This document shows, piece by piece, positions 1 to 13,955 of a stretch of 13,955 nt of DNA. Every line of letters starts with the position of its first letter. Positions within the stretch are counted from its first letter, which is position 1. The DNA is from a virus. Lineage: Duplodnaviria > Heunggongvirae > Uroviricota > Caudoviricetes. The notes under the pieces were generated by a model. The model was not told the origin of the DNA and ran no database searches. It worked only from the letters and a program-made list of their open reading frames with translations. The stretch lies in the IMG/VR virus record IMGVR_UViG_3300012275_000032, positions 1-13,955 of that record; one strand, written 5' to 3'. The position numbers were made by a program, and so were the translations under genes.

Positions 1-23
1 CGCTTTAACCATCAGCTCCATAC

Positions 24-248
24 TCATGCTGCACCTCCGAGATGCTTCATGTTTTTTCCGGAGCAAAAGGCTATAAGCGGCATACTGACGCGGTAATTAC
101 GGCCCAGCGGTTCACAAACCACCTTCTGACATTCACGGTCAACCAGGCTAACACGTAGAACATGCCCTGCAGGCGTGGTGTACCACTGACCCGGACGAGG
201 ACAACGGAAAGTCTGATTGGTAAAACGTTTGAAAATATTCCGGATCAT
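24..248 (-). CDS. Small hypothetical phage protein (74 aa)
   Basis: ORF whose ATG (246-248) overlaps the TGA stop (245-247) of the upstream ORF as ATGA, a typical translational-coupling junction. No family recognised. Confidence 0.4.
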   Translation of the reverse strand: MIRNIFKRFTNQTFRCPRPGQWYTTPAGHVLRVSLVDRECQKVVCEPLGRNYRVSMPLIAFCSGKNMKHLGGAA

Positions 249-1384
249 TTGCGCCCCCTTACCTCTGAAGGGTTCAGCGACAAATTTATGAGGCAGGCCA
301 GCGCCGAAGCATCATTAATATAATCATATAAGCTAACAGCCAGCGGAGATTCGGCTTTTGCCAACATAGGATAAAGCTGCTGCAGCCAGACCTGATGAAT
401 TGATGAAATGTAGGAACAGAGAACGCTGGCGTTATGTGCAACGTCGGGCTTTGAAAGCTGTTTCTCCATCTGGTTAAAGGCATTGATATATGCCTCTTTG
501 AACTGGGCAGCACGTTTACCCGTGAAACCCATAGCAAGAAACGCAAAACCGTCGCGTGTGATTTGGTAGCAAGGAAGTTTGCGACCTGTGCAATCAGTGT
601 AATCACTCACCGAAAAATTGCGGGCAGTGAATGATGCTGAGCATTCAAGCGTGCGGATCTTTTTCAGTACATCGTCATGACGTTTGGAGAAGAAGTTGGC
701 AACAGCCAGGGATGAAGTAACAGCCTGACCATCAACGATGGCAATTTCAGGTTGAGTGAGGGTTGGGATCGTAGCCATGATGGCAGCCTCTTTGGTGATT
801 TTTAATAACTCACCACCAAGGCTTTCCACGACCTTATTGGTGGTGAGACGTACAGGGGTGGAAATACCGGTCACCAAAGAACCCGGCCCAACCGAAGTTG
901 GCCCTGCACGCCCCACCATAATTTGGGCGTAATGCTGCTCATGACACAAAAAAACCGCAAGAGCGCGGTTGTGCGCTTTGGTGAATTCCGGGTTTCCACG
1001 CCCGGCACCCGTTTTATAAGGTGCCTGAACAGTGTAACGTCCCGGAATGGCAGAATCAATGTGTTGGTGGTCCGTCACACTCAACAAAATCACGCCTGAA
1101 TTTCCACAAAGGACTAAAGCACTCATGCGGGTAGTCTTTGCGAAGATAGATAACGCGCTGTGTTTCTGGTTCCCAACGAATAACATGAACATAAAGCCCT
1201 CTTCCGTCACGAAACCAGCGGTTAAGTTCCTGCACAACTCGCCCCCCACAGTCAGGTAAAGTTCTCTGTGGTTACTTACAGCCAGGTGATTTGGTAATCT
1301 GCATTCATGCCGTAACAACAGGTGTTCAGAGACGCTGACCACCAGCTGTTGCGACAAACGGTTATTTGCCGTTAAACTGTTCAT
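245..1384 (-). CDS. Phage regulatory protein with Rha-family motif in its C-terminal half; N-terminal 200 aa of uncertain validity (alternative start at 778 gives a 177-aa Rha-like protein)
   Basis: Motif TSSLAVANFFSKRHDDVLKKIRTL resembles the Rha (phage regulatory protein) signature as recalled. An internal ATG at 776-778 is preceded by AAAGAGG at good spacing. The ORF ATG at 1382-1384 overlaps the stop of the upstream CII-like gene (ATGA). The N-terminal part has unusual composition (very few Asp, many His/Cys). Confidence 0.45.
   Translation of the reverse strand: MNSLTANNRLSQQLVVSVSEHLLLRHECRLPNHLAVSNHRELYLTVGGELCRNLTAGFVTEEGFMFMLFVGNQKHSALSIFAKTTRMSALVLCGNSGVILLSVTDHQHIDSAIPGRYTVQAPYKTGAGRGNPEFTKAHNRALAVFLCHEQHYAQIMVGRAGPTSVGPGSLVTGISTPVRLTTNKVVESLGGELLKITKEAAIMATIPTLTQPEIAIVDGQAVTSSLAVANFFSKRHDDVLKKIRTLECSASFTARNFSVSDYTDCTGRKLPCYQITRDGFAFLAMGFTGKRAAQFKEAYINAFNQMEKQLSKPDVAHNASVLCSYISSIHQVWLQQLYPMLAKAESPLAVSLYDYINDASALACLINLSLNPSEVRGRK
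948..975 (-). terminator. Possible weak intrinsic terminator on the minus strand, inside the long ORF
   Basis: Minus-strand hairpin AACCGC-GCTCTT-GCGGTT (plus-strand 953-970) followed by a run of 5 T (plus-strand A-run 948-952). The stem is only 6 bp. Confidence 0.25.
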
Positions 1385-1932
1385 GCGTTAGTTTCTCCAC
1401 AGACACAAAACGCCACGACGCCCGGAGCTGCACACTCGCGGGCGTCACTCTTTTCTGGAGCGCAGAAAATTTTGTAGACCAGTGCCGCATGCTCCTGGAG
1501 CTTCGAAATTGAGAGGTACAGCTCGTCGTTAATTGCTGTCTTCTCATGCGGTTCCACTACACCGTCTTCAATTGCTGAACGAATCTGTTTTGAATAACTG
1601 CCGATCTGTTCAATGACCTCCAGCAGGCGTTGGTTGATATCGGCGTTGTCCACATCCTCGACATCAGGAAGAGACACAAAGACGCCATTTGCAGACTGCG
1701 CCACAGCGTCAGCAATGAAGTGAGTTCCACCAGCACGTTGCAAAATCATTGCCCATCCCAGCGGGAAAATCTGATCGCCATCGGCACGAAGGCGGTTAAA
1801 TAATGCGTTCTCTGTTACATCCAGCCAGTCAGCAGCTTCAGCGTACCCCCCAGGCAACGCTGCGATAGTTTTTCTGACAGCTTTCACGTACCACTCAGGC
1901 TGTTTTTCTACTTTCCAGTGATGCTTACCCAC
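1381..1932 (-). CDS. CII-like phage regulatory protein (183 aa), second gene of the cro-side operon
   Basis: Sits immediately downstream of the cro-like gene with an 8-nt overlap. Size and position match CII-type lysogeny regulators of lambdoid prophages. The family call is from memory, not a search. Confidence 0.5.
   Translation of the reverse strand: MGKHHWKVEKQPEWYVKAVRKTIAALPGGYAEAADWLDVTENALFNRLRADGDQIFPLGWAMILQRAGGTHFIADAVAQSANGVFVSLPDVEDVDNADINQRLLEVIEQIGSYSKQIRSAIEDGVVEPHEKTAINDELYLSISKLQEHAALVYKIFCAPEKSDARECAAPGVVAFCVCGETNA
1417..1456 (+). terminator. Plus-strand hairpin plus T-rich tail antisense to the 3' end of the CII-like gene (OOP-like terminator candidate)
   Basis: Perfect 8-bp stem GACGCCCG (1417-1424) / CGGGCGTC (1439-1446) with a 14-nt loop, followed by ACTCTTTTCT. 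A candidate promoter TTGCGA (1349-1354) with an 18-bp spacer to TAACTG-like TAAACT (1373-1378) lies upstream. Confidence 0.35.
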
Positions 1933-2185
1933 GGTTCACCTCCTGTTCCTGTGGTTTAAACCCATTCTGGTTTTGGCTAGATTGAAAACGTGCCGGATAA
2001 AGAATCTGCATTTCGCTGACTTCACCCTTAAAAAAATTGGCTAAACGTTCTGCAAGCTCGATAGATGGAATCTGCTCCAGCCTCTCAATACGACTCAACG
2101 TCGCTGGATTGACTTGAACACCCGCAGCAACATGCTGCAAAGTGAAACCATGCGCCTTACGCACATTTCGTAATGGTGATTGCAT
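1925..2185 (-). CDS. Cro-like HTH (XRE-family) transcriptional regulator (86 aa)
   Basis: Small ORF divergent from the CI-like repressor. HTH-like segment GFTLQHVAAGVQVNPATLSRIER. GGAGGG Shine-Dalgarno 6-11 nt upstream of the ATG (plus-strand 2191-2196). Confidence 0.7.
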   Translation of the reverse strand: MQSPLRNVRKAHGFTLQHVAAGVQVNPATLSRIERLEQIPSIELAERLANFFKGEVSEMQILYPARFQSSQNQNGFKPQEQEVNRG

Positions 2186-2282
2186 ACGCCCTCCAAATAT
2201 TGCGCGTTATGCATGTTATTTCACGCAATTATTTTGCGCAAGTTGATTTGCTTATCACGCAATAAAGAAATGTAATAAACGC
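2186..2282. promoter_or_regulatory. Divergent promoter/operator region between the cro-like and cI-like genes (OR-like)
   Basis: Repeated half-sites: ATTGCGCG (2199-2206), CACGCAAT (2222-2229 and 2256-2263) and the perfect palindrome TTGCGCAA (2234-2241). Minus-strand promoter candidate: -35 TTGCGC (plus 2236-2241), 17-bp spacer, -10 TAACAT (plus 2213-2218). No Shine-Dalgarno precedes the cI-like ATG; TAATAA at 2273-2278 suggests a leaderless or near-leaderless transcript. Confidence 0.55.
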
Positions 2283-2975
2283 ATGAACATAGGAAACCGA
2301 GTCAGACAACTTCGCCAAGCGAAGAACATGAAAATCGCCGATCTCGCTGAAGCGATAGGAGTAGATGCGGCGAACATCTCGCGCTTAGAAACGGGTAAGC
2401 AAAAACAATTTACCGAACAAACACTGAGTAATATTGCCAAGAGCTTAGGTGTTGATATTGCTGATCTCTTTACCTCTGCCCACAAAAGTAATACTGTATA
2501 TAAAAACAGTAATAATGAGGATGTTGCGCAGGTGAAGGATGTGTTCCGTATTGAAATGCTGGATATCAGTGCCAGTGCGGGAAATGGCCTTATCCAGGGC
2601 GGTGATGTCATTGATGTGATTCATGCCATCGAATACAGAACTGATAATGCTGTATCAATGTTCGGCGGACGACCAGCCAATCACATCAAAGTTATCAACG
2701 TTCGTGGGGACAGTATGTGTCCAACCATTGAGCCAGGAGATCTCATCTTCGTTGATGTCAGCATCAATCAGTTTGATGGTGATGGTATATATGTCTTTGG
2801 TTTTGATGACAAAATATACGTTAAAAGACTTCAAATGATTCCTGACAAACTGCTGGTGATTTCTGATAACCAGATTTACCGTGAATGGGGAATTACTAGC
2901 GAAAACGAACACCGATTCATGGTCTTTGGAAAGGTCTTAATCAGTCAGTCGCAAACCCTTAAGAGACATAATTAA
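2283..2975 (+). CDS. CI-like phage repressor, N-terminal HTH plus C-terminal S24 (LexA-like) peptidase domain (230 aa)
   Basis: N-terminal HTH (RVRQLRQAKNMKIADLAEAIGVDAANISRLETGK). C-terminal GDSMCPTIEPGDLIFVD (catalytic Ser) and IYVKRLQ (Lys), the Ser-Lys dyad pattern of self-cleaving repressors. Divergent from the cro-like gene. Confidence 0.85.
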   Translation: MNIGNRVRQLRQAKNMKIADLAEAIGVDAANISRLETGKQKQFTEQTLSNIAKSLGVDIADLFTSAHKSNTVYKNSNNEDVAQVKDVFRIEMLDISASAGNGLIQGGDVIDVIHAIEYRTDNAVSMFGGRPANHIKVINVRGDSMCPTIEPGDLIFVDVSINQFDGDGIYVFGFDDKIYVKRLQMIPDKLLVISDNQIYREWGITSENEHRFMVFGKVLISQSQTLKRHN

Positions 2976-2994
2976 CCTCAATATCCCATCCATC

Positions 2995-3017
2995 GGCCAC
3001 CGAAAGGTGGCTTTTTA
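2995..3017 (+). terminator. Intrinsic terminator downstream of the cI-like gene
   Basis: Stem GGCCACC (2995-3001), loop GAAA, stem GGTGGC (3006-3011), then TTTTTATT. Confidence 0.6.
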
Positions 3018-3029
3018 TTACCTATAAAT

Positions 3030-3080
3030 TTGCATATCTCGCAAATATCACTTGCATATCTCGCAATTTAATTTTATCTT
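3030..3080 (+). promoter_or_regulatory. Tandem 15-bp direct repeat overlapping a sigma70-like promoter (OL/pL-like candidate)
   Basis: TTGCATATCTCGCAA at 3030-3044 and again at 3052-3066. Promoter candidate: -35 TTGCAT (3052-3057), 17-bp spacer, -10 TATCTT (3075-3080). The TTGC...GCAA half-sites resemble the OR-region half-sites. Confidence 0.45.
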
Positions 3081-3273
3081 TTGTTCCAGACCAACTACAG
3101 GATTACAACAAAATCTGGTTGCAACACGGTGCATGTGTCGTAAGCAGTCAGTAAATGTCAAAAACGAACAGGCAGGACGCCCACGAAGTAGCCGCCTGGG
3201 GCATATGAAGTCCAGGATGATTCGTTGAGTCATGTTGTGCCACTAGGCACTCATGTTAAAGCAGGTGTATGAA

Positions 3274-3549
3274 ATGAAAGTCCAGATTTTAAACAATAAC
3301 TGTGAAGTCGTTTGGTCATACGACATAGCCGCCCCTGTAGATCAGAGCGGCGATAGCTGGACCAATGGGAAACATCAGATTATGGCTGGAGTTGTGTTCT
3401 CTTTACGCCGTGCTTTGGAACAGGCTGAAGTATTTCCATCAGACCCTGAATGGAAATGGCCTTTTTCTATTTGTCCAAATTCGGAGAGCACATTTCAGAA
3501 AATTGGTCAGAAAGTCGCACTCGAAGAGCATCAGCCAACTGTTTCCTGA
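3274..3549 (+). CDS. Hypothetical protein (91 aa from the ATG at 3274; the ORF track starts it at 3253)
   Basis: AGGTG about 7 nt upstream of the ATG at 3274. No recognisable family. Overlaps the convergent ORF 3467-3712 by 83 bp, so one of the two may be spurious. Confidence 0.3.
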   Translation: MKVQILNNNCEVVWSYDIAAPVDQSGDSWTNGKHQIMAGVVFSLRRALEQAEVFPSDPEWKWPFSICPNSESTFQKIGQKVALEEHQPTVS

Positions 3550-3712
3550 TTTTTTCAGGTAACTCGTCGGCATCGCAGAAACAACAACGCTCGATCATGT
3601 TGAAAGCCGATTCGTAGAACTGTTTTTGCTGAGTGTCGCTGAGACAGGAAAAGAGCGACGTTACGATGATTTTATTAATTGCATTATCAAGTTCTTTTTC
3701 ATCAAAAGTCAT
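3467..3712 (-). CDS. Hypothetical protein (81 aa), possible moron gene
   Basis: Good Shine-Dalgarno (AAGGAA) about 8 nt upstream of the ATG at 3710-3712. Helical-looking sequence with a CCFC motif. No family recognised. Confidence 0.4.
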   Translation of the reverse strand: MTFDEKELDNAINKIIVTSLFSCLSDTQQKQFYESAFNMIERCCFCDADELPEKIRKQLADALRVRLSDQFSEMCSPNLDK

Positions 3713-3779
3713 TTGATTTTCCTTTTATGTATACGGGCTTAAAAGGATACCACCGAGCCTGAAGTGGTAAAAAGACAGG

Positions 3780-4140
3780 CACATAACAGCTAAGTATTTT
3801 CAACCAGAGAGAATCCTTAGCGTTGTGGTGAATGCGGCTCAGCGCACGCGGGTTAAGGTTGAGGCTGACAGTCGACCTTCTGTGGATACCCACCCGCCTG
3901 GTGTGCAACCTTCGCCAGGCACCGGGAGGCACCCGGCACCACAACTTTATGCTGTGTGTAGTCCTGGTGGTACCAGTTTGTACCCTTGCTTCCGGCTGGT
4001 ACCGTCCTTTTTACAAAACAGAGAAGAGCATCACCGGACGACGGGCTCATAACCCAATCCATCCGGGCGGCTGCCACCGCAGGTGTTCTTCTCTGTTTTG
4101 TGGAGAAACCAACCGACCTTGCAGGGTCGATATGATGAGG
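3780..4140. other. GC-rich non-coding stretch with dense secondary-structure potential; candidate structured RNA or cis-acting site
   Basis: An 18-bp inverted repeat, 4013-4030 against 4084-4101 (17 Watson-Crick pairs plus one G-U), encloses 53 nt. Further stems: GCCTGG/CCAGGC (3896-3901/3915-3920), CCGGG/CCCGG (3922-3926/3932-3936), TGGTACCA palindrome around 3967-3974. All ORFs here look junk-like and overlap on both strands. Confidence 0.4.
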
Positions 4141-4149
4141 AGCAGCAAA

Positions 4150-4439
4150 ATGGCTAGCGAACGCAGTACTGATGTGCAGGCATTTATCGGGGAGCTGGAC
4201 GGCGGCGTATTTGAAACCAAAATCGGCGCAGTTCTCAGTGAAGTCGCTTCCGGTGTGATGAACACGAAAACCAAAGGGAAGGTCTCACTNNNNNNNNNNA
4301 AATTTCTGAAGAAGACACCACCGAAACGCCGATGTATGTCAATCGCGGTGGTCGCCTGACTATTCTGCAGGAAGACCAGGGACAATTACTGACTCTTGCC
4401 GGTGAACCTGACGGAAAACTCCGCGCAGCAGGTCATTAA
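4150..4439 (+). CDS. Hypothetical phage protein interrupted by an assembly gap
   Basis: GAGGAG 7 nt upstream of the ATG at 4150. Protein-like sequence MASERSTDVQAFIGELDGGVFETKIGAVLSEVASGV before the gap, and after the gap (in a different frame) ISEEDTTETPMYVNRGGRLTILQEDQGQLLTLAGEPDGKLRAAGH ending at TAA 4437-4439. Confidence 0.4.
4290..4299. other. Run of 10 N (assembly or masking gap) inside a coding region
   Basis: Literal n characters. The frame before and after differs, so the true gap length is not 10. Confidence 0.95.
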
Positions 4440-4504
4440 TATCGTTTTTAATTAACTGATTATTTATCTCATCACTGAATATTTTTATATAGTGAGGATT
4501 TATT

Positions 4505-5329
4505 ATGTCTCAGAACTTAGACGCAACCGCAATTAATCAAATCCATGCCCTTATTTCTGCTCAGGGTGTTAATGAAATTATCAGTAAGATTGGTGCCGAT
4601 GCTGTGGCATTGCCTGAGAATTTCCGCATTCATGATCTGGAAAAATTTAATTTAAATCGTTTCCGTTTCCGTGGTGCGCTTTCCACTGCCAGCATCGATG
4701 ACTTTACCCGTTATTCTAAAGATCTTGCAGATGAAGGCACCCGCTGCTTTATCGATGCCGATAATATGCGTGCCGTCAGTGTGCTTAACCTGGGTACTAT
4801 TGATGAACCAGGTCACGCCGATAACACCGCCACTCTCAAACTGAAAAAGACAGCACCGTTCTCTGCTCTGTTGTCTGTTAATGGCGAGCGTAATTCCCAG
4901 AAGTCACTGGCAGAATGGATTGAAGACTGGGCAGACTACCTTGTGGGCTTTGATGCTAATGGTGACGCTATTCAGGCAACAAAAGCGGCTGCGGCTGTCC
5001 GTAAAATCACGATTGAAGAAAACCAGACCGCTGATTTTGAAGATAATGACTTCAGCGGCAAACGCTCCCTGATGGAGTCTGTCGAAGCGAAGACCAAAGA
5101 CATTATGCCAGTGGCATTTGAATTTAAATGCGTTCCGTTTGAAGGCCTGAAAGAACGTCCGTTTAAATTACGCCTCAGCATTATCACTGGCGATCGTCCT
5201 GTACTGGTTCTGCGCATTATTCAGCTGGAAGCGGTGCAGGAAGATATGGCTAACGAATTTCGTGATCTGCTTGTTGAGAAATTCAAAGACAGCAAAGTAG
5301 AAACCTTTATTGGTACTTTCACCGCCTGA
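4505..5329 (+). CDS. YfdQ-like protein (DUF2303 family), 274 aa
   Basis: Clean ORF with GTGAGGA Shine-Dalgarno. Length and gene neighbourhood match the yfdQ-yfdR-yfdS-yfdT block of the K-12 CPS-53/KpLE1 prophage as I recall it. Not confirmed by search. Confidence 0.65.
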
Positions 5330-5456
5330 TTTCATTACTGCAAATGCCCCTGCGGGGGCATTTATGGAAACGTAATTAACTCAATAATCACCGGATGGTG
5401 AGGGCTTCATTTTACCAGAATTCAGCGTGGTGCAGCACATATACGTGGAGAACAAA

Positions 5457-5987
5457 ATGTCATTTATTAAAACTTTTTCCGGGAAGCATTTTTATTATGA
5501 CAGGATAAATAAAGACGACATCGTGATTAACGATATCGCGGTTTCCCTTTCAAATATCTGTCGCTTTGCAGGGCATCTTTCACACTTCTACAGCGTCGCC
5601 CAGCATGCGGTGCTTTGCAGCCAGTTGGTGCCGCAGGAATTGGCTTTTGAAGCGTTAATGCATGATGCAACAGAAGCTTAGGACATCCCCGCACCACTGA
5701 AACGCCTTCTTCCTGACTATAAACGGATGGAAGAAAAAATAGACGCCGTAATCCGTGAGAAATACGGGTTACCCCCAGTTATGAGTACGCCCGTGAAATA
5801 TGCCGATCTCATCATGCTGGCAACCGAACGCCGCGATCTCGGGCTTGATGATGGCTCTTTCTGGCCTGTACTGGAAGGCATCCCGGCAACAGAGATGTTC
5901 AACGTGATTCCACTGGCTCCAGGCCATGCCTACGGGATGTTTATGGAACGCTTTAACGAATTATCGGAGTTACGCAAATGCGCATAA
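5457..5987 (+). pseudogene. YfdR-like HD-domain phosphohydrolase (5'-deoxynucleotidase family) interrupted by an in-frame TAG
   Basis: ORF 5427/5457-5681 ends at TAG (5679-5681) directly after the HD motif (ALMHDATEA). The same frame continues DIPAPLKRLLPDYKRMEEK... into ORF 5727-5987. GGAGAA Shine-Dalgarno before the ATG at 5457. Total length about 176 codons, consistent with one gene. Confidence 0.6.
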
Positions 5988-6340
5988 ATGTTTTCGAAAT
6001 GGAAGGGTTTCTTCGCGGGAAATGTGTACCGCGAGATCTGAAAGTGAACGAAACAAATGCTGAGTACCTGGTACGTAAATTCGACGCGCTTGAAGCTAAA
6101 TGTGCGGCACTGGAAAGCAAAATAATACCAGTGTCAGCTGAACTGCCACCAGCAAATGAAAGTGTTCTGTTATTTGATGCTAACGGAGAAGGCTGGCTGA
6201 TTGGCTGGCGTTCTCTCTGGTACACCTGGGGACAAAAAGAAACCGGAGAATGGCAGTGGACATTTCAGGTCGGGGACCTTGAAAACGTCAATATCACTCA
6301 CTGGGCAGTAATGCCGAAAGCACCAGAGACTAAGAAATGA
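5978..6340 (+). CDS. YfdS-like hypothetical phage protein (120 aa)
   Basis: ORF overlapping the end of the YfdR-like gene by 10 nt. Length matches K-12 YfdS (120 aa) as recalled. Confidence 0.55.
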   Translation: MRINVFEMEGFLRGKCVPRDLKVNETNAEYLVRKFDALEAKCAALESKIIPVSAELPPANESVLLFDANGEGWLIGWRSLWYTWGQKETGEWQWTFQVGDLENVNITHWAVMPKAPETKK

Positions 6341-6525
6341 GCGTGATAAAAACTCATACAGGAATTGTTATCACCCGAGACGGTGAAAAGCGGATGAAAT
6401 TACATTCCACTGAAACGTCCTGGGTTGCCGGACGTTGTGAATCCTACGACAAAAAGACTGGTTACCGTTGGGGGGGGCACCTAACATGCGTCGCCGTCTG
6501 CTACTGGACAGCATCAGGCCAATAA
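6337..6525 (+). CDS. YfdT-like hypothetical protein, probably truncated or frameshifted (62 aa)
   Basis: ATGA overlap with the upstream stop. Contains a G8 homopolymer (6470-6477), after which the translation looks junk-like. Confidence 0.35.
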   Translation: MSVIKTHTGIVITRDGEKRMKLHSTETSWVAGRCESYDKKTGYRWGGHLTCVAVCYWTASGQ

Positions 6526-6613
6526 AACAGGTAGCAACCAGGGAACAAAATTAATTATCAGGACTGGAATTTGATATTACTGCCCGTGTGCAGCGGGCTA
6601 AGTGGAGAAACAT

Positions 6614-6820
6614 ATGCTGAACCTCGATTGTGTTCCAATCTCAACTTATTGCAAAGAAACTGGCGAAACTCCTGAAGCAATAAACAAACGTGTACAGCGC
6701 GGTGTTTGGCGTGAAGGTGTTCAGGTTTTAAAGGTTGAAGGCGTTAAGGAGAGGTGGATTGATCTTAGTGAGGTTGCAAAATGGGCCAGACAAAACTGCT
6801 CAAACTACCGCGCGGCGTAA
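6614..6820 (+). CDS. Excisionase-like protein (Xis), 68 aa from the ATG at 6614 (the ORF track begins at GTG 6602)
   Basis: Small basic protein immediately upstream of the integrase and overlapping it by 40 nt, the classic xis-int arrangement. GGAG (6604-6607) about 6 nt upstream of the ATG at 6614. Confidence 0.55.
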   Translation: MLNLDCVPISTYCKETGETPEAINKRVQRGVWREGVQVLKVEGVKERWIDLSEVAKWARQNCSNYRAA

Positions 6821-7977
6821 CAATCAGGAAACACCGCCAGGGCGAAACGATCAATATAACTTTCACCTACAAAGGAGTTAGATGTCGTGAGCCTCTTTCC
6901 AATCTGGAAGTAACACCAAAGAACATTAAATACGCCGAGCGCACACTCGGCGAAATTCATAATAAGATCGAAAGGGGAACATTCATTTATGCGGAATATT
7001 TTCCCCGTTCTGCTCGTTTGAAAATTTTTGGTAATGCTGCTGCAGGCAAAACGGTAAAAATGTACCTGGACGAATACCTTGAAATCTGCGAAACGAGAAA
7101 ACTTTCACCATCTACGATTGGTGGTTATAAAAAATGCCGTAGTGCGTTAGCCTCACTCCACATTTGCCCTGCAAGTGAATTAACACCAGCAATCCTGAAA
7201 GCGTGGATTCAAAGCCAAAAAACGACCTTAAAAACCATTCGCAACCAGTTATCTTTCCTGCGGTCAGCACTTGATGAAGCCGTAACCGATGGGGTACTTC
7301 AAATTAATCCCGTATCGTTAGTAACTGCTTCGCGCTACCAAAGTGATAAGTCAGAAGCAGAAAGCAGCTACGTGGTTGATCCGCTATCACCAGCAGAAGT
7401 TGATGCATTACTAGCAGCAGCCGGAAACAAACAATGGGAGAATCTGTTCCGGTTTGCTATACATACGGGCCTGCGTAGTTCTGAATTATGTGCCCTTCGA
7501 TGGCGTGATATCGACTTTGTTGGAAAAACTGCCCATGTCCAGAGCGCAAGTGTTGTCGGTGTTATCAAAGGAACAAAGACAAAAGCCGGTACTCGTAAAG
7601 TTGAACTGACAGAAGAGGCAATGTTGGCGCTGATAAACCAGAAGCCATTTACATTCATGAAGGATGCTACTGTCTTTGAAGATCCAAAGACCAATAAGCC
7701 TTGGGCAAGTGCTGATGCAATCAGGAAAAAAGCATGGGTGCCAACATTGCGAAAAGCAGGTATTCGTTACAGAAACCCATATCAAACCAGGCATACATTC
7801 GCCACCAGCCATATCAGCCGAGGAGCAAACCTGTTTTGGCTTGCAGCTCAAATGGGGCATAAAGGGCCGGAAATGCTTTTCAGGCATTATGGTTCGTATC
7901 TCGTAGACTATGATGGCAAGACAGCTTGTAAGGACCAAGTATCAAAAAATCCGGAGAACATGAAAATTGAGAAGTAA
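6781..7977 (+). CDS. Tyrosine site-specific integrase (lambda family, with N-terminal arm-binding domain), 398 aa
   Basis: N-terminus LPRGVTIRKH...FTYKGVRCREPL resembles the arm-binding (DUF3596-type) domain. Catalytic motifs present: TGLRSSEL (Arg), KTKAG (Lys), RHTFATSH (His-x-x-Arg), GH...FRHYGSY (His, Tyr). GAGG Shine-Dalgarno upstream. Confidence 0.9.
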   Translation: MGQTKLLKLPRGVTIRKHRQGETINITFTYKGVRCREPLSNLEVTPKNIKYAERTLGEIHNKIERGTFIYAEYFPRSARLKIFGNAAAGKTVKMYLDEYLEICETRKLSPSTIGGYKKCRSALASLHICPASELTPAILKAWIQSQKTTLKTIRNQLSFLRSALDEAVTDGVLQINPVSLVTASRYQSDKSEAESSYVVDPLSPAEVDALLAAAGNKQWENLFRFAIHTGLRSSELCALRWRDIDFVGKTAHVQSASVVGVIKGTKTKAGTRKVELTEEAMLALINQKPFTFMKDATVFEDPKTNKPWASADAIRKKAWVPTLRKAGIRYRNPYQTRHTFATSHISRGANLFWLAAQMGHKGPEMLFRHYGSYLVDYDGKTACKDQVSKNPENMKIEK

Positions 7978-8080
7978 AACGCCCGATAGCACTAGCCCCC
8001 CTTCGCAAAACAGTAAAGCTTACAAGAATGTTAGCAGGATGATGAGGATAGTGTACAATGGTTTTAGTGTGCATTAAATG

Positions 8081-8120
8081 CAAAGATTTGACGTTTTTTG
8101 TCAAATTTGTGCTATAAAAT
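8081..8120 (+). promoter_or_regulatory. Promoter with extended -10 and overlapping dyad symmetry, upstream of the defence gene pair
   Basis: TGcTATAAA extended -10 (8110-8118). TTGACG (8088-8093) is a -35-like hexamer at non-optimal spacing. Imperfect inverted repeat CAAAGATTTGAC-N7-GTCAAATTTGTG (8081-8111). AAGGG Shine-Dalgarno before the ATG at 8168. Confidence 0.45.
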
Positions 8121-8167
8121 CACTTTTAGTGGTTTTTAAGCTATGGGAAGTTAAAAGGGTATAAATT

Positions 8168-9433
8168 ATGTTGATTGAGTTTACAGTACAAAACTATAAA
8201 TCTATTTCAGAGAAACAAACACTGAGTTTAGTTGCATCAAAACTTAACGATTTGCCTAATAATCTGTTCAGTATTGATGAACCTAAATCTCTTGAATTGC
8301 TTAAAAGTGCTGTGATTTATGGCCCTAATGCTGCCGGAAAATCAAACATTATTAACGCTATTACAACTATGGCTGAACTTATTGTCCGGTCTGCTACAGG
8401 TTATAAAAGTGGTGATAAACTTGATATCACGCCTTTTAGACTAGACTCAAAGAAGATTAATCAACCATCTGAATTTGAAATTAACTTTATTTCCGAAGGC
8501 ATCAGATACCAGTATGGTTTTTCTGCAACAGAAGATTTTATTCACGACGAATGGTTATTTGCATTCCCCAAAGGCAGACCACAAAAATGGTTTTTACGTC
8601 TATGGGATGAAGAAAAACAAACCCATGAATGGGAGTTGGGGCCATCGTTGACAGGAGAAAAACAAACATGGTTGAAATCAACTAGGCCTAATGCGCTCTT
8701 TCTTTCTACAGCGGTACAATTAAACAGTGTACAACTAAAACCTGTATACGATTGGTTTTATTACAAAGTTAAATTTACTGAATTAACAGGTTGGGATAGT
8801 GATTACAGTGCAAAGCAATGCTTAAATGATAAGAAAGATGAGATTCTCAATTTTTTAAAAGCTGCCGATGTAGGTATTGATGACATTCATGTAACAAAAG
8901 AAAAATTCAATCCCAATGCTCTTCCTGATGATATGCCTGCAGCCATCAAGGAACTAGTGATTAAGAATATGCAAGGCAAGGAAGAATATGTCATTAAAAC
9001 ACTTCATAATAATGAGGATGGAGAGCCAATTCCATTCGATTTAAAAGATGAATCGCATGGAACTAGAAAAATCTTTAGTTTCGCGGGTCCCTTATCACAT
9101 TCACTCGAGACAGGAAACATCCTGTTTATTGATGAATTAAATGATAACTTACACCCCAAATTAGTTGAGTTTATTGTAGGTTTGTTTCACGATAAAAATA
9201 TCAATAAGAATGGTGCCCAGTTAATCTTTACAACTCATGAGACGTCTATTTTAAATCAAGATGTTTTCAGACGAGATCAGATTTGGTTTGTAGAAAAAGA
9301 CAATTCAAAGCAAACAAATCTTTTCCCACTTACGGATTTTAGTCCAAGAAAAGGAAGGGAGAATTTAGAAGCTTCTTATCTTGACGGTAGATATGGGGCT
9401 TTACCACTCATTGGGAAATGGGAGAGATATTAA
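8168..9433 (+). CDS. ABC/AAA_21-type ATPase of a two-gene defence module (AbiLi / AriA / OLD-N-terminal-like), 421 aa
   Basis: Walker A GPNAAGKS (nt 8321-8344), Walker B ILFIDELNDNLHP, H-loop-like IFTTHE. AT-rich codon usage. Stop TAA (9431-9433) overlaps the partner ATG. Confidence 0.85.
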   Translation: MLIEFTVQNYKSISEKQTLSLVASKLNDLPNNLFSIDEPKSLELLKSAVIYGPNAAGKSNIINAITTMAELIVRSATGYKSGDKLDITPFRLDSKKINQPSEFEINFISEGIRYQYGFSATEDFIHDEWLFAFPKGRPQKWFLRLWDEEKQTHEWELGPSLTGEKQTWLKSTRPNALFLSTAVQLNSVQLKPVYDWFYYKVKFTELTGWDSDYSAKQCLNDKKDEILNFLKAADVGIDDIHVTKEKFNPNALPDDMPAAIKELVIKNMQGKEEYVIKTLHNNEDGEPIPFDLKDESHGTRKIFSFAGPLSHSLETGNILFIDELNDNLHPKLVEFIVGLFHDKNINKNGAQLIFTTHETSILNQDVFRRDQIWFVEKDNSKQTNLFPLTDFSPRKGRENLEASYLDGRYGALPLIGKWERY

Positions 9434-10119
9434 TGGGAAGCGAAGATCTGTTCAAAAAAAGAAAGGCTCGGCGTAATAATGAATTCAAACGAGTTAGTAA
9501 AGCACGAGCTCAAATGAAGAAAATTCTTATCGTCTGTGAGGGAGAGAAGACTGAGCCCGCATATTTTACAGATTTTATAAAACATTGCCGTATAAGCACG
9601 GCAAGCATAGTTGAGATTTCTGGAGAGTGCGGCTCAAGCCCTATGAATGTGGTATCTTGGGCAAAAGAAAAATATAATACGGAAAAAAAAAGGAGCGACC
9701 CTTATGATAAGGTTTATTGTGTCTTTGATAGAGACGCTCACCCTAACTATGATGAAGCTCTTAGCAGGATTAATTCCTTAAATCCAAAAGGGATTTTTGT
9801 TGCTATAACTTCCATACCATGTTTCGAGTACTGGCTGATACTACATTTTGGATACACCCGAAAATCATTTTCACCTCAGAAAGGCAAAAGTGAAGGCGCA
9901 CAAATGCTAGCTGAGTTAAAAAAATACATGCCAGATTATGAGAAAAAGGCATCAGGTGTATTTAATAAATTGCAAGATCGGCTCGATACGGCATTAATCA
10001 ATGCTAAAAGAGTCGAAGATGCCGCCAAAAAAGACGGTTCGATAAATCCTTCAACTAAAGTTGGCGCTTTGATTACAGATCTAATTAACATTCGTGATGA
10101 CTTTGAAAATGAGAAGTAA
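9433..10119 (+). CDS. RloB-like / Toprim-like partner protein (AbiLii-like), 228 aa from the ATG at 9433 (the ORF track begins at 9418)
   Basis: TAATG stop-start overlap with the ATPase gene and GGGAG Shine-Dalgarno (9419-9425). Basic N-terminal tail, then ILIVCEGEKTEPAYF (Toprim Glu, nt about 9526-9570) and a downstream FDRDAH (DxD) motif, the RloB-family signature as recalled. Confidence 0.8.
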   Translation: MGSEDLFKKRKARRNNEFKRVSKARAQMKKILIVCEGEKTEPAYFTDFIKHCRISTASIVEISGECGSSPMNVVSWAKEKYNTEKKRSDPYDKVYCVFDRDAHPNYDEALSRINSLNPKGIFVAITSIPCFEYWLILHFGYTRKSFSPQKGKSEGAQMLAELKKYMPDYEKKASGVFNKLQDRLDTALINAKRVEDAAKKDGSINPSTKVGALITDLINIRDDFENEK

Positions 10120-10244
10120 AAATAACATGTCATGATGTAGCGACGGCAGCATGTTTAAGTTCAAATGGCAAAGTGTACGCGAAGTATACGCGGATCAAAA
10201 ACAATAGAAAAAACGTATATTTTACAAAAGATTATATAAATTTT

Positions 10245-10266
10245 GACGCGGGTTCAACTCCCGCCA
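10245..10266 (+). other. Partial copy of the tmRNA (ssrA) 3' end: prophage/island att core (attR-like boundary)
   Basis: GACGCGGGTTCAACTCCCGCCAGC matches the T-arm and 3' acceptor strand of E. coli tmRNA (recalled as ...GGACGCGGGTTCAACTCCCGCCAGCTCCACCA). It then diverges (CCCCAATCA), and no tmRNA body lies upstream. Confidence 0.7.
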
Positions 10267-10400
10267 GCCCCCAATCATGATTGGACGGTGTAAGGACTAC
10301 ACCAACAAAAACAGGAAGTTATAAGTCTCAGCAGGACACCGACCAGACGGTGAGGAGACAAAAAAGGATACGCAACGGAGTCGCGACTCCCTATGACATT

Positions 10401-10427
10401 AAAGCCCGCTGATGCGGGCTTTTTTAT
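10401..10427 (+). terminator. Intrinsic terminator about 140 bp downstream of the att copy
   Basis: Stem AGCCCGC (10403-10409), loop TGAT, stem GCGGGCT (10414-10420), followed by TTTTTTATT. Confidence 0.6.
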
Positions 10428-10856
10428 TGGTCCTGACCCGCCCTGAATAGAATTCATCCAATTACAGTCCAGACATATACAGTATCCCTCAGCTCAGTAT
10501 CAGCTTCTCGACAAATGGTCACTGTTATTTACCCGTTGCCAGAAAGAGAATAATTTGCCCCCATAGCCAGCCTTCCCGGAATCTGTATATTCATTAATAT
10601 TGTTATCGATTCCATCAAGTAACATAGGTTGGATGCGATTGATCTTACTCACATTAGTCGACACGGAACTCAGTAAGTTGAACTCTGAAAAAGCAGTTTA
10701 AATAGCATTTAAACAAATGCCACCAGTTCGAAAAAGAGTATAAGCACACTTAATATATTGTTTTAATTATTCATTTCCTTTCAACCCAATTCTTATCCCT
10801 CACATTATTTGTTATTAATTTGTTGTTTTTGATCACAATAAGAAAACAATATGTAA

Positions 10857-11895
<1,039 letters not shown>

Positions 11896-11914
11896 GCGCA
11901 AAGGAATTGAGCGG

Positions 11915-13183
11915 ATGTATGATTTTGTGATTATTGGCGGCGGCATCATCGGCATGTCGACCGCCATGCAACTGATTGATGTTTATCCGGATGCCCGCAT
12001 TGCGTTGCTGGAAAAAGAGTCCGGCCCTGCCTGTCACCAGACGGGCCACAACAGCGGCGTGATCCATGCCGGAGTCTATTACACGCCCGGTAGCCTGAAG
12101 ACGCAGTTTTGCCTGGCGGGGAACCGCGCCACTAAAGTCTTTTGCGATCAAAACGGCATTCGCTACGACAACTGCGGCAAGATGCTGGTCGCCACGTCTG
12201 AACTCGAAATGGAACGGATGCATGCGTTATGGAAACGCACGGCGGCGAACGGGATCGAGCGCGAGAGGTTAAATGCCGAGGAGCTGCGCGAGCGTGAACC
12301 GAATATCACCGGGCTTGGCGGCATTTTTGTGCCGTCCAGCGGCATCGTCAGCTATCGCGAAGTGACGGCGGCGATGGCGAAAATTTTCCAGGCCAGAGGT
12401 GGTGAGATTATTTATAACGCCGAAGTCAGCGCCCTCAGTGAGCATAAAAACGGCGTGGTGATACGTACCCGTCAGGGCGGTGAATATGAAGCATCGACGC
12501 TGATTAGTTGTTCCGGGCTGATGGCTGACCGGCTGGTGAAAATGCTCGGCCTCGAACCGGGCTTTATTATCTGCCCGTTCCGCGGCGAGTATTTCCGCCT
12601 TGCGCCAGAGCATAACCAGATTGTTAACCAGCTGATTTACCCCATTCCCGACCCGGCAATGCCGTTTTTGGGCGTGCATCTCACCCGCATGATCGACGGC
12701 AGCGTGACCGTCGGGCCAAACGCGGTGCTGGCTTTCAAACGCGAAGGCTACCGCAAGCGCGACTTCTCATTTAGTGACACGCTAGAGATTTTAGGCTCGT
12801 CGGGGATTCGCCGGGTGCTGCAAAACCATCTACGCTCAGGACTGGGCGAGATGAAAAACTCGCTGTGCAAAAGCGGCTATCTGCGGCTGGTGCAAAAGTA
12901 TTGTCCCCGGCTTTCGTTAAGCGATCTCCAGCCCTGGCCCCCCGGTGTGCGGGCGCAGGCGGTATCGCCGGACGGCAAACTGATTGACGATTTTCTGTTT
13001 GTCACCACCCCGCGCACGATCCACACCTGTAATGCGCCCTCCCCGGCAGCGACATCAGCAATTCCTATTGGTGCGCATATTGTCAGCAAGGTACAAACGC
13101 TGTTGGCAAGCCAGAGTAACCCCGGACGCACGCTGCGAGCGGCACGTAGTGTGGATGCCTTACACGCCGCATTTTATCAATAA
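11915..13183 (+). CDS. lhgO: L-2-hydroxyglutarate oxidase/dehydrogenase (LhgO, also called YgaF or LhgD), 422 aa
   Basis: FAD-binding N-terminus MYDFVIIGGGIIGMSTA (GxGxxG). AAGGAA Shine-Dalgarno at 11901-11906. The track ORF starts further upstream at 11849, but the conserved start is the ATG at 11915. Lies between csiD and gabD as in E. coli. Confidence 0.9.
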   Translation: MYDFVIIGGGIIGMSTAMQLIDVYPDARIALLEKESGPACHQTGHNSGVIHAGVYYTPGSLKTQFCLAGNRATKVFCDQNGIRYDNCGKMLVATSELEMERMHALWKRTAANGIERERLNAEELREREPNITGLGGIFVPSSGIVSYREVTAAMAKIFQARGGEIIYNAEVSALSEHKNGVVIRTRQGGEYEASTLISCSGLMADRLVKMLGLEPGFIICPFRGEYFRLAPEHNQIVNQLIYPIPDPAMPFLGVHLTRMIDGSVTVGPNAVLAFKREGYRKRDFSFSDTLEILGSSGIRRVLQNHLRSGLGEMKNSLCKSGYLRLVQKYCPRLSLSDLQPWPPGVRAQAVSPDGKLIDDFLFVTTPRTIHTCNAPSPAATSAIPIGAHIVSKVQTLLASQSNPGRTLRAARSVDALHAAFYQ

Positions 13184-13205
13184 CCTTTGAAAACAGGATG
13201 TAGCG

Positions 13206-13955
13206 ATGAAACTTAACGACAGTAACTTATTCCGCCAGCAGGCGTTGATTAACGGGGAATGGCTGGACGCCAACAATGGCGAGGTCATCGACGTCACCAA
13301 TCCGGCGAACGGCGACAAGCTGGGTAGCGTGCCGAAAATGGGCGCTGATGAAACCCGCGCCGCTATCGACGCCGCCAACCGCGCCCTGCCCGCCTGGCGT
13401 GCGCTCACTGCCAAAGAACGCGCCAACATTCTGCGCAACTGGTTCAATTTAATGATGGAGCATCAGGACGATTTAGCGCGCCTGATGACCCTCGAACAGG
13501 GCAAACCACTGGCTGAAGCGAAAGGCGAAATCAGCTACGCCGCCTCATTTATTGAGTGGTTTGCCGAAGAAGGCAAACGTATTTATGGCGACACCATTCC
13601 CGGTCATCAGGCCGATAAACGCCTGATTGTTATCAAGCAGCCGATTGGCGTCACCGCGGCTATCACGCCGTGGAACTTCCCGGCGGCGATGATTACCCGT
13701 AAAGCCGGTCCGGCGCTGGCGGCAGGCTGCACGATGGTGCTGAAGCCCGCCAGTCAGACGCCGTTCTCTGCGCTGGCGCTGGCAGAACTGGCGATTCGCG
13801 CGGGCGTTCCGGCTGGCGTGTTTAACGTGGTCACCGGTTCGGCGGGCGCGGTCGGTAACGAACTGACCAGCAACCCGCTGGTGCGCAAGCTGTCGTTTAC
13901 CGGCTCGACCGAAATTGGCCGTCAGTTAATGGAACAGTGCGCGAAAGACATCAAA
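13206..13955 (+). CDS. gabD: Succinate-semialdehyde dehydrogenase GabD, 5' portion (continues beyond the window end)
   Basis: MKLNDSNLFRQQALINGEWLDANNGE... with the aldehyde dehydrogenase motif region (ITPWNFP, FTGSTEIG). No stop codon before the window end. Sits immediately downstream of lhgO. Confidence 0.9.
   Translation, partial: MKLNDSNLFRQQALINGEWLDANNGEVIDVTNPANGDKLGSVPKMGADETRAAIDAANRALPAWRALTAKERANILRNWFNLMMEHQDDLARLMTLEQGKPLAEAKGEISYAASFIEWFAEEGKRIYGDTIPGHQADKRLIVIKQPIGVTAAITPWNFPAAMITRKAGPALAAGCTMVLKPASQTPFSALALAELAIRAGVPAGVFNVVTGSAGAVGNELTSNPLVRKLSFTGSTEIGRQLMEQCAKDIK

Follow-up and report, generated by a model that had tools for sequence, protein, structure and literature searches.

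Here we examine the immunity region of a lambdoid prophage contained in a DNA stretch of 13,955 nucleotides (IMG/VR record IMGVR_UViG_3300012275_000032, positions 1 to 13,955), which as a whole is called the window in the following. Positions 1925–3080 of it probably constitute the immunity (lysis/lysogeny) switch of a prophage of the SfII/e14/CPS-53 type, with two plausible induction inputs. The switch itself is a known module of textbook type, already annotated in Shigella phage SfII. The surprising part, which goes beyond the ordinary, is an SOS box inside the repressor gene together with a start signal downstream of it; neither appears in an earlier note that described the module from the sequence.

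The switch is built around two genes:

1925–2185, minus strand: cro-like gene, 86 amino acids (aa), with a helix-turn-helix (HTH) domain of the HTH_3 family; Shine-Dalgarno (SD) sequence GGAGG at 2190–2194 on the minus strand.
2283–2975, plus strand: cI-like gene, 230 aa; HTH_3 at aa 7–62 and Peptidase_S24 at aa 104–218 (Pfam).

They form a divergent pair, an HTH plus S24 repressor facing a small Cro-like HTH protein, as in the lambdoid CI/Cro switch. The cro-like gene leads the leftward early operon, in which the CII-like gene ymfL comes next. The CI protein consists of the HTH part (aa 3–64), a variable linker (about aa 65–86) and the S24 domain. The predicted cleavage site A99-G100 is encoded at 2577–2582, and the predicted catalytic residues Ser144 and Lys181 at 2712–2714 and 2823–2825, respectively; all of these residues are invariant among seven relatives, and an alignment with UmuD places the serine within GDSM and the lysine within VKRL. 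At the sequence level, CI thus has the Ala-Gly site and, within Peptidase_S24, the Ser/Lys dyad of a self-cleaving repressor of the LexA/S24 kind, in agreement with the earlier note, according to which the gene keeps its HTH and its dyad. CI and Cro have the same amino acid sequences as their SfII counterparts (100% identity). In those relatives that have the operator motif described next, hardly any change is seen in the recognition-helix region of CI.

A family of 15-bp operators, with the consensus TTGCGTAnTACGCAA, is represented by three sites between cro and cI, in the right operator (OR), and by two sites beyond the cI terminator, in the left operator (OL):

2200–2214: ORa, TTGCGCGTTATGCAT, 19.1 bits; overlaps the –10/+1 region of the predicted cro promoter.
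2227–2241: ORb, where the right half TGCGCAA alone matches the consensus; holds the palindrome TTGCGCAA at 2234–2241.
2248–2262: ORc, TTGCTTATCACGCAA, 20.7 bits; overlaps the –35 and the spacer of the predicted cI promoter.
2995–3019, plus strand: intrinsic terminator of cI, consisting of a hairpin at 2995–3012, GGCCACCGAAAGGTGGC, and a T run; an annotated terminator in SfII.
3030–3044: OL1, TTGCATATCTCGCAA, 24.9 bits.
3052–3066: OL2, TTGCATATCTCGCAA, 24.3 bits; its left half is the –35 of the predicted promoter pL.

A family of TTGCG/CGCAA half-sites had been proposed before, and the motif alignment that was suggested as a check has now been made. It yields one family, shared by both clusters and found at fixed positions in the relatives. 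The perfect palindrome that had been singled out turns out to belong to the right half of the middle site, ORb, and to the –35 of cro. What had been called a 15-bp tandem repeat past the cI terminator indeed consists of identical 15-mers, OL1 and OL2, but these are not strictly tandem, as their starts are 22 bp apart and a 7-bp spacer lies between them.

Exact matches to TTGC-N7-GCAA occur in the window at 2248–2262, 3030–3044, 3052–3066 and 579–593, that is, four times compared to 0.65 expected, and four were reached by 1 of 200 shuffles. We have also scanned the window with a weight matrix built from the relatives, which is partly circular in that the sites were picked by core match. Only the sites at 2200–2214, 2248–2262, 3030–3044 and 3052–3066 reach 19–25 bits, and the next one has 10.1 bits. 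The exact match at 579–593 scores 9.4 bits and was judged to be due to chance.

The positions of the sites are better conserved than their inner bases. Among 27 unique intergenic regions, which come from about 20 genera of enterobacteria, 25 have the layout ORa–12 nt–ORb–6 nt–ORc without any insertion or deletion (indel), and the inner bases of each site vary freely. ORa reads TTGCN7GCAT in all relatives, always ending in GCAT, and the right half of ORb, TGCGCAA, is invariant as well; the left half of ORb departs from TTGC by one mismatch in 10 of 25 relatives and by four in the window phage. Beyond the cI terminator, most relatives have two sites 22–24 bp apart, and the second of these is followed by a conserved TTTTATCTT. 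The operator and promoter layout as a whole has been preserved in about 50 non-redundant relatives, which come from many Enterobacterales. As far as sequences can tell, this conservation of position with variable inner bases across genera is real evidence against chance operators.

The following promoters were called by means of a lenient matrix plus conservation:

2213–2241, minus strand: predicted pR (cro); –35 TTGCGC at 2241–2236, 17 bp, –10 TAACAT at 2218–2213; start at about 2206; 7.1 bits.
2248–2283, plus strand: predicted pRM-like promoter (cI); –35 TTGCTT at 2248–2253, 17 bp, –10 TGTAAT at 2271–2276; start at about 2283; 6.8 bits.
3052–3087, plus strand: predicted pL; –35 TTGCAT at 3052–3057, 17 bp, –10 TATCTT at 3075–3080; start at about 3087; 9.0 bits.

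The cro promoter is the best intergenic candidate on the minus strand, and in the relatives its –35 is invariant and its –10 is kept as TAnnAT. The cI promoter is the best candidate on the plus strand. In the case of pL, likewise the best candidate of its region, the hexamers TTGCNT and TATCTT and their 17-bp spacing are kept from E. coli to the Klebsiella and Citrobacter phages, which agrees with the earlier suggestion that the downstream repeats overlap a rightward promoter, as an analogue of the OL/pL region. OL2 covers the –35 and the spacer of pL, and OL1 is located one to two helical turns upstream. As in a lambdoid switch, there are thus several dyad operators between the two genes, over what appear to be divergent promoters, and a second operator cluster that overlaps a putative early-left promoter.

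Inside the cI gene, there is one further site:

2492–2511: SOS (LexA) box, TACTGTATATAAAAACAGTA, in the cI linker, codons 70–76 (T-V-Y-K-N-S).

This site agrees with the consensus at 18 of 20 positions, it has the form of a 20-bp TACTGT-N8-ACAGTA palindrome with low heterology, and it is the sole strong LexA-type site in the window. Its letters are exactly those of the umuD and sbmC boxes (PMC3009722, Table 4). The linker that bears it is the most variable part of CI, with flanking DNA that is unalignable among the relatives. Nearly every relative, from E. coli to Pantoea, Proteus, Serratia and Rosenbergiella, has the box at the same codon, and a search for more box-less relatives, in which the co-occurrence of box and downstream start could be followed, returned 24 new non-redundant sequences (viral contigs), 24 of which have the box.

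Codon usage was compared in 17 sequences that are less than 88% identical to each other. The threonine of the box is encoded by ACT in 16 of 16 cases (background 0.36), the valine by GTA in 13 of 17 (background 0.19) and the serine by AGT in 16 of 17 (background 0.13). The amino acid changes that do occur are confined to the degenerate centre or preserve xAC/xCC (ACAG or CCAG). Fixed synonymous sites and restricted changes of this kind mean that the box is selected as DNA and not as protein, and its status as a selected DNA element can be regarded as well supported by the comparison. No site above 13/20 was found in about 20 other S24 repressor families of the fetched loci, in HK022 cI or in e14 ymfK, and a literature search with the exact box gave only papers on host (non-phage) SOS boxes.

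Two further observations concern LexA-type sites and proteins. A second CTGT-N8-ACAG core, CTGTGGTTACTTACAG, is located at 1266–1281, upstream of the isrK and C4 RNAs described below; its centre is GC-rich and its flanks are without consensus, and as a LexA site it is weak at best. In relatives with this immunity type, the early-right operon encodes a 108-aa protein that has a complete LexA_DNA_bind domain and no S24 domain, and that might bind to the SOS box in cI or to host SOS boxes. The corresponding position would fall past the left edge of the window. In three of the loci that we compared, the gene is located as follows:

2706–3032, minus strand, in L004: SfII_44.
7829–8155, in L001: the same LexA-DNA-binding-domain-only gene.
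14742–15068, in L002: the same gene.

The surroundings of the box contain two candidate features that give it a possible function:

2469–2497, plus strand: candidate LexA-controlled internal promoter; –35 TTTACC at 2469–2474, 17 bp, –10 TACTGT at 2492–2497; start near 2504.
2532–2975, plus strand: candidate nested in-frame open reading frame (ORF), starting at GTG84, with SD sequence GAGGA at 2517–2521; alternative start GTG87 at 2541; about 144–147 aa.

The –35 of the internal promoter, TTTAC(C/T/A/G), corresponds to codons F63-T64, and the 17-bp gap between it and TACTGT, the first half of the box, is free of indels in the relatives. Among the promoter-like sites within the gene, this promoter ranks fourth or better in 24 of 32 sequences. 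The nested product (aa 84–230) would have a full Peptidase_S24 match, cleavage site included, and no HTH. When the threshold is set to an in-frame ATG or GTG with an SD pairing of –5.4 kcal/mol or better, 14 of the 17 non-redundant relatives have such a start no more than 12 codons past the box, compared to 3.8% of other 12-codon windows of the same genes, and in 8 genes it is the sole such site. The SD strings vary by lineage (GAGGA, GAGGG, GGAG, AGGAG, GGGGGG and GAGGT). The two lineages without a good box, Dryocola and Phaseolibacter, are also without the nested start.

We tentatively suggest that cI may be two genes in one, with a LexA-gated antirepressor nested in frame in a self-cleaving repressor. 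In undamaged cells, host LexA would then occupy this top-affinity SOS box in the linker codons and silence the internal sense promoter, and cleavage of LexA after heavy DNA damage would let this promoter fire. The internal mRNA would give the HTH-less C-terminal domain of CI, from the in-frame GTG84 or GTG87. As a dominant-negative partner in mixed dimers or as a protease acting in trans, this isoform would inactivate full-length CI and serve as a built-in antirepressor. Intermolecular cleavage by C-terminal fragments of LexA and CI is established and has reportedly been described by Kim and Little in 1993. The internal promoter, the HTH-less isoform and the effect of the isoform are inferred.

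A number of points speak against the nested antirepressor. The internal promoter is weak, being top-ranked in just 3 of 32 genes, and the preference for the sense direction is small (7.1 bits compared to 6.1 bits for the antisense one). The position of the start codon is not fixed, ranging over codons 84–91, and in the Klebsiella-type group there is a GTG at codon 96. In addition, the SD threshold was set post hoc, the sequences are phylogenetically related, and the acidic and glycine residues of the linker could partly explain purine-rich, SD-like strings. The joint loss of box and start is anecdotal, as it concerns only two or three box-less lineages.

Another option is that the box works without a nested protein. 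LexA, or the phage protein with only the LexA DNA-binding domain, bound at +210 of cI would then be a roadblock or modulator, or the box would control an antisense promoter directed toward OR and cro. The selection acting on the box at the DNA level, the moderate strength of the sense promoter and the antisense candidates, which are not much worse, are all compatible with this option, and the 108-aa protein of the relatives could use the cI box. However, the –35 position required for an antisense promoter lands in the hypervariable part of the linker, and a roadblock leaves unexplained both the conserved in-frame start with its SD sequence downstream and the indel-free 17-bp spacing to the upstream TTTAC. 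We consider this option a serious alternative, though a rather unlikely one.

Antirepressors under LexA control are known from other phages, Tum of coliphage 186 and AntC of N15 being examples. GfoA and GfhA of the Gifsy prophages are likewise LexA-controlled antirepressors (PMC3121763). The isoform proposed here would resemble all of these in that the SOS state is sensed by LexA derepression of a repressor-inactivating protein. They are, however, separate genes located far from the immunity region, and the corresponding repressors are not self-cleaving, while the candidate in the window is nested in frame in a repressor gene that has the S24 residues.

The start of the cI mRNA can be discussed on the basis of the promoter geometry. 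A –10 of the TGTAAT type precedes the cI ATG in 25 of 27 unique relatives, at a distance of exactly 6 nt in 23 and 7 nt in 2 of them, with TTGCNN 17 bp upstream of the –10 in all 25, while the bases between the –10 and the ATG vary. No SD-like sequence is present at –16 to –3 relative to the cI ATG in the window or in the 25 relatives with the ATG geometry. The fixed distance, the variable sequence of the gap and the absence of an SD sequence lead to a leaderless reading, and it is well supported by this comparison that the predicted cI mRNA starts at the A of the ATG (2283). A leaderless mRNA from a maintenance promoter had been raised as a possibility from the missing SD sequence, and, judged by geometry alone, the relatives agree with it. 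The lambda pRM transcript also starts at the A of the ATG (PMC10491246).

In the two exceptions, both from Rosenbergiella, cI starts with GTG and is preceded by a leader that contains an SD-like sequence. They could be taken to indicate that cI is not leaderless but is expressed from longer transcripts that begin, for instance, at a CII-dependent promoter in cro or ymfL, with SD-independent translation and with TGTAAT conserved for another reason. The presence of a gene for a CII protein of the CP76 family points in the same direction, as an upstream establishment promoter is then to be expected. This scenario is nevertheless unlikely in view of the exact 6–7 nt gap between a TAnnnT-type hexamer and the ATG, with TTGCNN at its 17-bp distance, in all the other relatives. 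It can be added that M1 is the conserved CI start among the relatives. The repressor genes of mEp460 (L005, 1904–2551) and Stx2a_1447 (L006, 1904–2551) are annotated from Met16, which would cut helix 1 of the HTH; the likely cause is that gene callers overlook leaderless starts.

A comparison with the e14 prophage of E. coli K-12 shows how the region is delimited. e14 is 90% identical to the window up to position 1960 (ymfL and the last cro codons) and again from 3160. Between the equivalents of 1961 and 3159, e14 encodes the unrelated repressor YmfK and a Cro of its own, and repeats of the TGTAC type are found in the two corresponding places. Relative to e14, cI, cro and both operator clusters have thus been swapped as one unit, in the manner of an 'imm' cassette. 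Since the repeats of e14 differ along with its repressor while ymfL is 90% identical, the repeats co-vary with the repressor, and YmfL is excluded as their ligand. The cassette exchange, the genes and the site conservation together agree with the view of the earlier note that an intact lambdoid CI/Cro switch with two operator clusters is present.

In the switch that we consider probable, CI dimers on ORa and ORb would block the cro promoter, at the –10/+1 and the –35, respectively. CI on ORc would cover the –35 and the spacer of the cI promoter, leading to negative autoregulation, and CI on OL1 and OL2 would block the rightward pL that leads to xis and int. In both the cI promoter and pL, operators are centred near –50 and –28, and with this common design CI should act on its own promoter as a repressor, just as it would on pL. 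Positive autoregulation of the lambda type is not evident, with ORb being a half-site centred near –49 and ORc lying over the –35. Cro would presumably act through the same sites to turn cI off. The first induction input would be RecA-stimulated self-cleavage at Ala99-Gly100 by Ser144/Lys181, and the second one the LexA-gated route described above. By analogy, control of the xis-int operon by CI is a reasonable suggestion, as pL points towards xis and int.

Several observations weigh against this assignment. A scan of 1900–3300 with the strict sigma-70 consensus gave no promoter, and the lenient matrix was applied after this empty result. The promoter matches are all moderate, and scores of 6–7 bits arise by chance 3–7 times per kb per strand, so the support for the promoters comes from their conservation and not from the scores. 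ORb is merely a half-site in the window phage. The N-terminal domain of CI and Cro gave no alignment and have no significant pairwise similarity (BLASTP), so that the sharing of operators by the two proteins rests on analogy; an argument for shared specificity through similar recognition helices was dropped for this reason. Finally, the literature searched yielded neither binding data nor transcript or protein data on repressors of this type.

It is also conceivable that the module is a silent relic of a decaying prophage, with a repressor that is unexpressed or non-functional and with conservation that reflects recent common descent only. Some decay is indeed seen in the window, in the form of a premature stop in yfdR, and copies of the immunity region that are 99.8% identical reside in many genomes of E. 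coli O157:H7. We consider this quite improbable, as SfII, a deposited complete phage genome, encodes exactly the same CI and Cro (100% identity), the ORFs and sites are all intact, and the conservation reaches relatives at 54–70% protein identity, where neutral sites are saturated. That the TTGC...GCAA repeats are sites of another regulator (the CII-like YmfL, Rha or a host factor), or chance –35-like hexamers, is highly improbable: TTGC is similar to the beginning of a –35 consensus hexamer, and –35 positions are overlapped by three of the sites, but conservation is as high in the right halves (GCAA, at a distance of 11 bp) as in the left ones, OL1 and ORa coincide with no –35, the CI recognition-helix region is nearly invariant where the motif is shared, and e14 has different repeats alongside a different repressor in spite of its 90% identical ymfL.

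The closest known system is SfII (KC736978; cI SfII_37, cro SfII_38, cII SfII_39), which is 99.4% identical in DNA sequence over 1925–3250 and has the same terminator, the same SOS box, and the same operators except for one base in OL1. The prophages are otherwise mosaic. The window has another integrase and is inserted by glaH, while SfII is inserted by tRNA-Thr; the window also has extra genes of the yfdP/yfdQ type, and AbiL in place of the gtr cargo. The GenBank record of SfII annotates genes and the terminator only, and the operators, the leaderless start and the SOS box are not described there. Immunity regions that are about 90% identical occur in mEp460, in several phages induced from ECOR strains and in Stx2a phages, and ones that are about 70–75% identical in Salmonella ST64B, Klebsiella phages and Citrobacter phiNP.

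With lambda, 434 and HK022, the window shares the divergent cI and cro genes, a three-site OR, an OL cluster over pL beyond cI, the 'imm' unit, an S24 repressor of the self-cleaving kind and, as predicted, the leaderless cI that lambda expresses from pRM. HK022 CI is 42% identical to the CI of the window over 210 aa, mostly in the C-terminal domain. The differences are that the operators of the window are 15 bp long and have another sequence, that OL has two sites and not three, and that the gaps in OR are 12 and 6 nt. Compared to lambda, the –35 of the cI promoter is covered by the strongest OR site, and the middle one is centred near –49. The likeness to e14, with YmfK (CohE) and YmfT (CroE), is one of synteny, in the order ymfL, cro, cI, terminator, repeats and leader element, with flanks that are 85–91% identical. 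e14 is, however, heteroimmune, YmfK has only a weak S24 match, the repeats are of the TGTAC type, and the repressor gene is without an SOS box.

The leader of pL contains a structured element:

3164–3225, plus strand: pL-leader element; stem P1 3164–3168/3221–3225, small hairpin 3171–3173/3179–3181, stem P2 3193–3199/3212–3219.

A closing stem surrounds an invariant core of about 25 nt, which includes a 3-bp hairpin, and a second hairpin. In an alignment of 93 distinct copies, 97.8% of the cells are paired and 253 cells are changed on both sides; the covariation score is 0.469, compared to at most 0.105 for slid controls, which are 21–42% paired. The element is outside the immunity cassette and is common to the heteroimmune e14, SfII, ST64B and phiNP-type phages, with one copy per phage. 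In 57 of 102 contexts, comprising at least three immunity types, it is found 75–225 nt past an S24 repressor gene. Relatives of the mEp460 type and HK022 do not have it. An Rfam scan of 1900–3700 with E up to 5 gave no match, no strong intrinsic terminators are present downstream of the element, and the counts of wobble pairs (11 and 13) do not decide which strand is transcribed.

No N gene is apparent in the window, and SfII, SfIV and SfV have likewise been noted to be without N (PMC3851460). HK022, a lambdoid phage without N, has the put antiterminator RNA, a structured RNA of about 60–70 nt just past pL (PMC9378689). The element in the window is similar in that it is a structured RNA of comparable size just downstream of pL in a lambdoid phage lacking N. 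It differs in architecture, as put has two adjacent stem-loops while here a closing stem surrounds two hairpins. An identity with put was rejected on the grounds that there is no match to putL in sequence or model, that the architecture differs, and that there is no second copy after pR. One possibility is that the element is a new cis-acting RNA that would modify early-left transcription in N-less lambdoid phages.

The window as a whole corresponds to the integrase-proximal part of a lambdoid prophage whose insertion adjoins glaH(csiD)-lhgO. The genes on the two sides of the switch are the following:

1925–2185, 1381–1932 and 245–1384, minus strand: leftward operon with cro-like gene, ymfL and 'Rha' ORF, respectively, and with a 74-aa ORF; the ymfL product is a CII protein of the CP76 family (Pfam).
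2283–2975, plus strand: cI-like gene, followed in this order by several small genes, yfdQ (DUF2303), yfdR and a DUF551 gene.
6781–7977, plus strand: tyrosine integrase.
8168–10119, plus strand: two-gene AbiL defence system, followed by the host genes glaH and lhgO.

A related E. coli genome has a full-length prophage (Q, lysis, terminase, portal and capsid genes) in the same site, with different cargo after int. The left part of the present prophage is beyond the window; whether it is cryptic, as it had been labelled, cannot be judged, and the label is not supported.

The yfdR gene (5'-deoxynucleotidase, 5457–5984, plus strand) is interrupted by an in-frame stop at 5679–5681. A short deletion has turned EAYCQDIPA, as found in strain S56, into EA*DIPA, which is a sign of local decay. 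Runs of 10 masked bases (N) are present at 4290–4299, in a yfdP-like region, and at 11687–11696, at the end of glaH, and the ORF calls are broken there.

In the defence system, AbiLi (8168–9433, plus strand) matches the AAA_21 ATPase with E 4e-101 and AbiLii (9418–10119, plus strand) matches RloB with E 3e-29. The related prophage has a different ATPase and a Dam methylase between int and glaH, which makes this a variable slot. Repressor control of the defence cargo had been raised as a possibility and finds no support. The best operator-like site at AbiL, at 8069–8083 upstream of AbiLi, has 10.1 bits compared to 19–25 bits for the real sites; it was judged to be due to chance, and CI control of the cargo gains nothing from it.

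Two RNA genes were found in the early-right operon at the gathering level of Rfam:

836–923, minus strand: C4 antisense RNA, 83.6 bits.
948–1024, minus strand: isrK, 67.9 bits.

Both fall within the N-terminal half of the 379-aa 'Rha' ORF (245–1384), and a Pfam match to 'Phage_ASH' (aa 117–213 of this ORF) exactly covers them. This part of the ORF is thus probably not protein, and the real start of the Rha/antirepressor protein is probably near aa 203. By analogy, the two RNAs look like a second control layer in this operon, similar to P1 immI or to isrK of Gifsy.

The immunity region is matched in 2,639 of 5,426 complete E. coli genomes, and in 1,037 of them the match extends over at least 80% of 1800–3300. 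In the literature searched, we came across neither operators of the SfII type nor a leaderless cI of SfII nor an SOS box within cI; an earlier description may still exist. The SfII-type operator sequence, the layout of three plus two sites and the leaderless start thus appear not to have been described before, and the operators and their layout define an immunity group that is present in about half of the complete E. coli genomes and in some Stx2 phages.

If it is true that the box gates an HTH-less isoform, this would be a new route by which a prophage reads the SOS state of its host, and the strategies of repressor self-cleavage and of a LexA-controlled antirepressor would be joined in one gene. 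The box in cI is equal in strength to that of umuDC, which suggests a threshold for commitment to induction. The proposal, if correct, would be relevant to how Shigella serotype-converting phages and some Shiga-toxin phages are induced.

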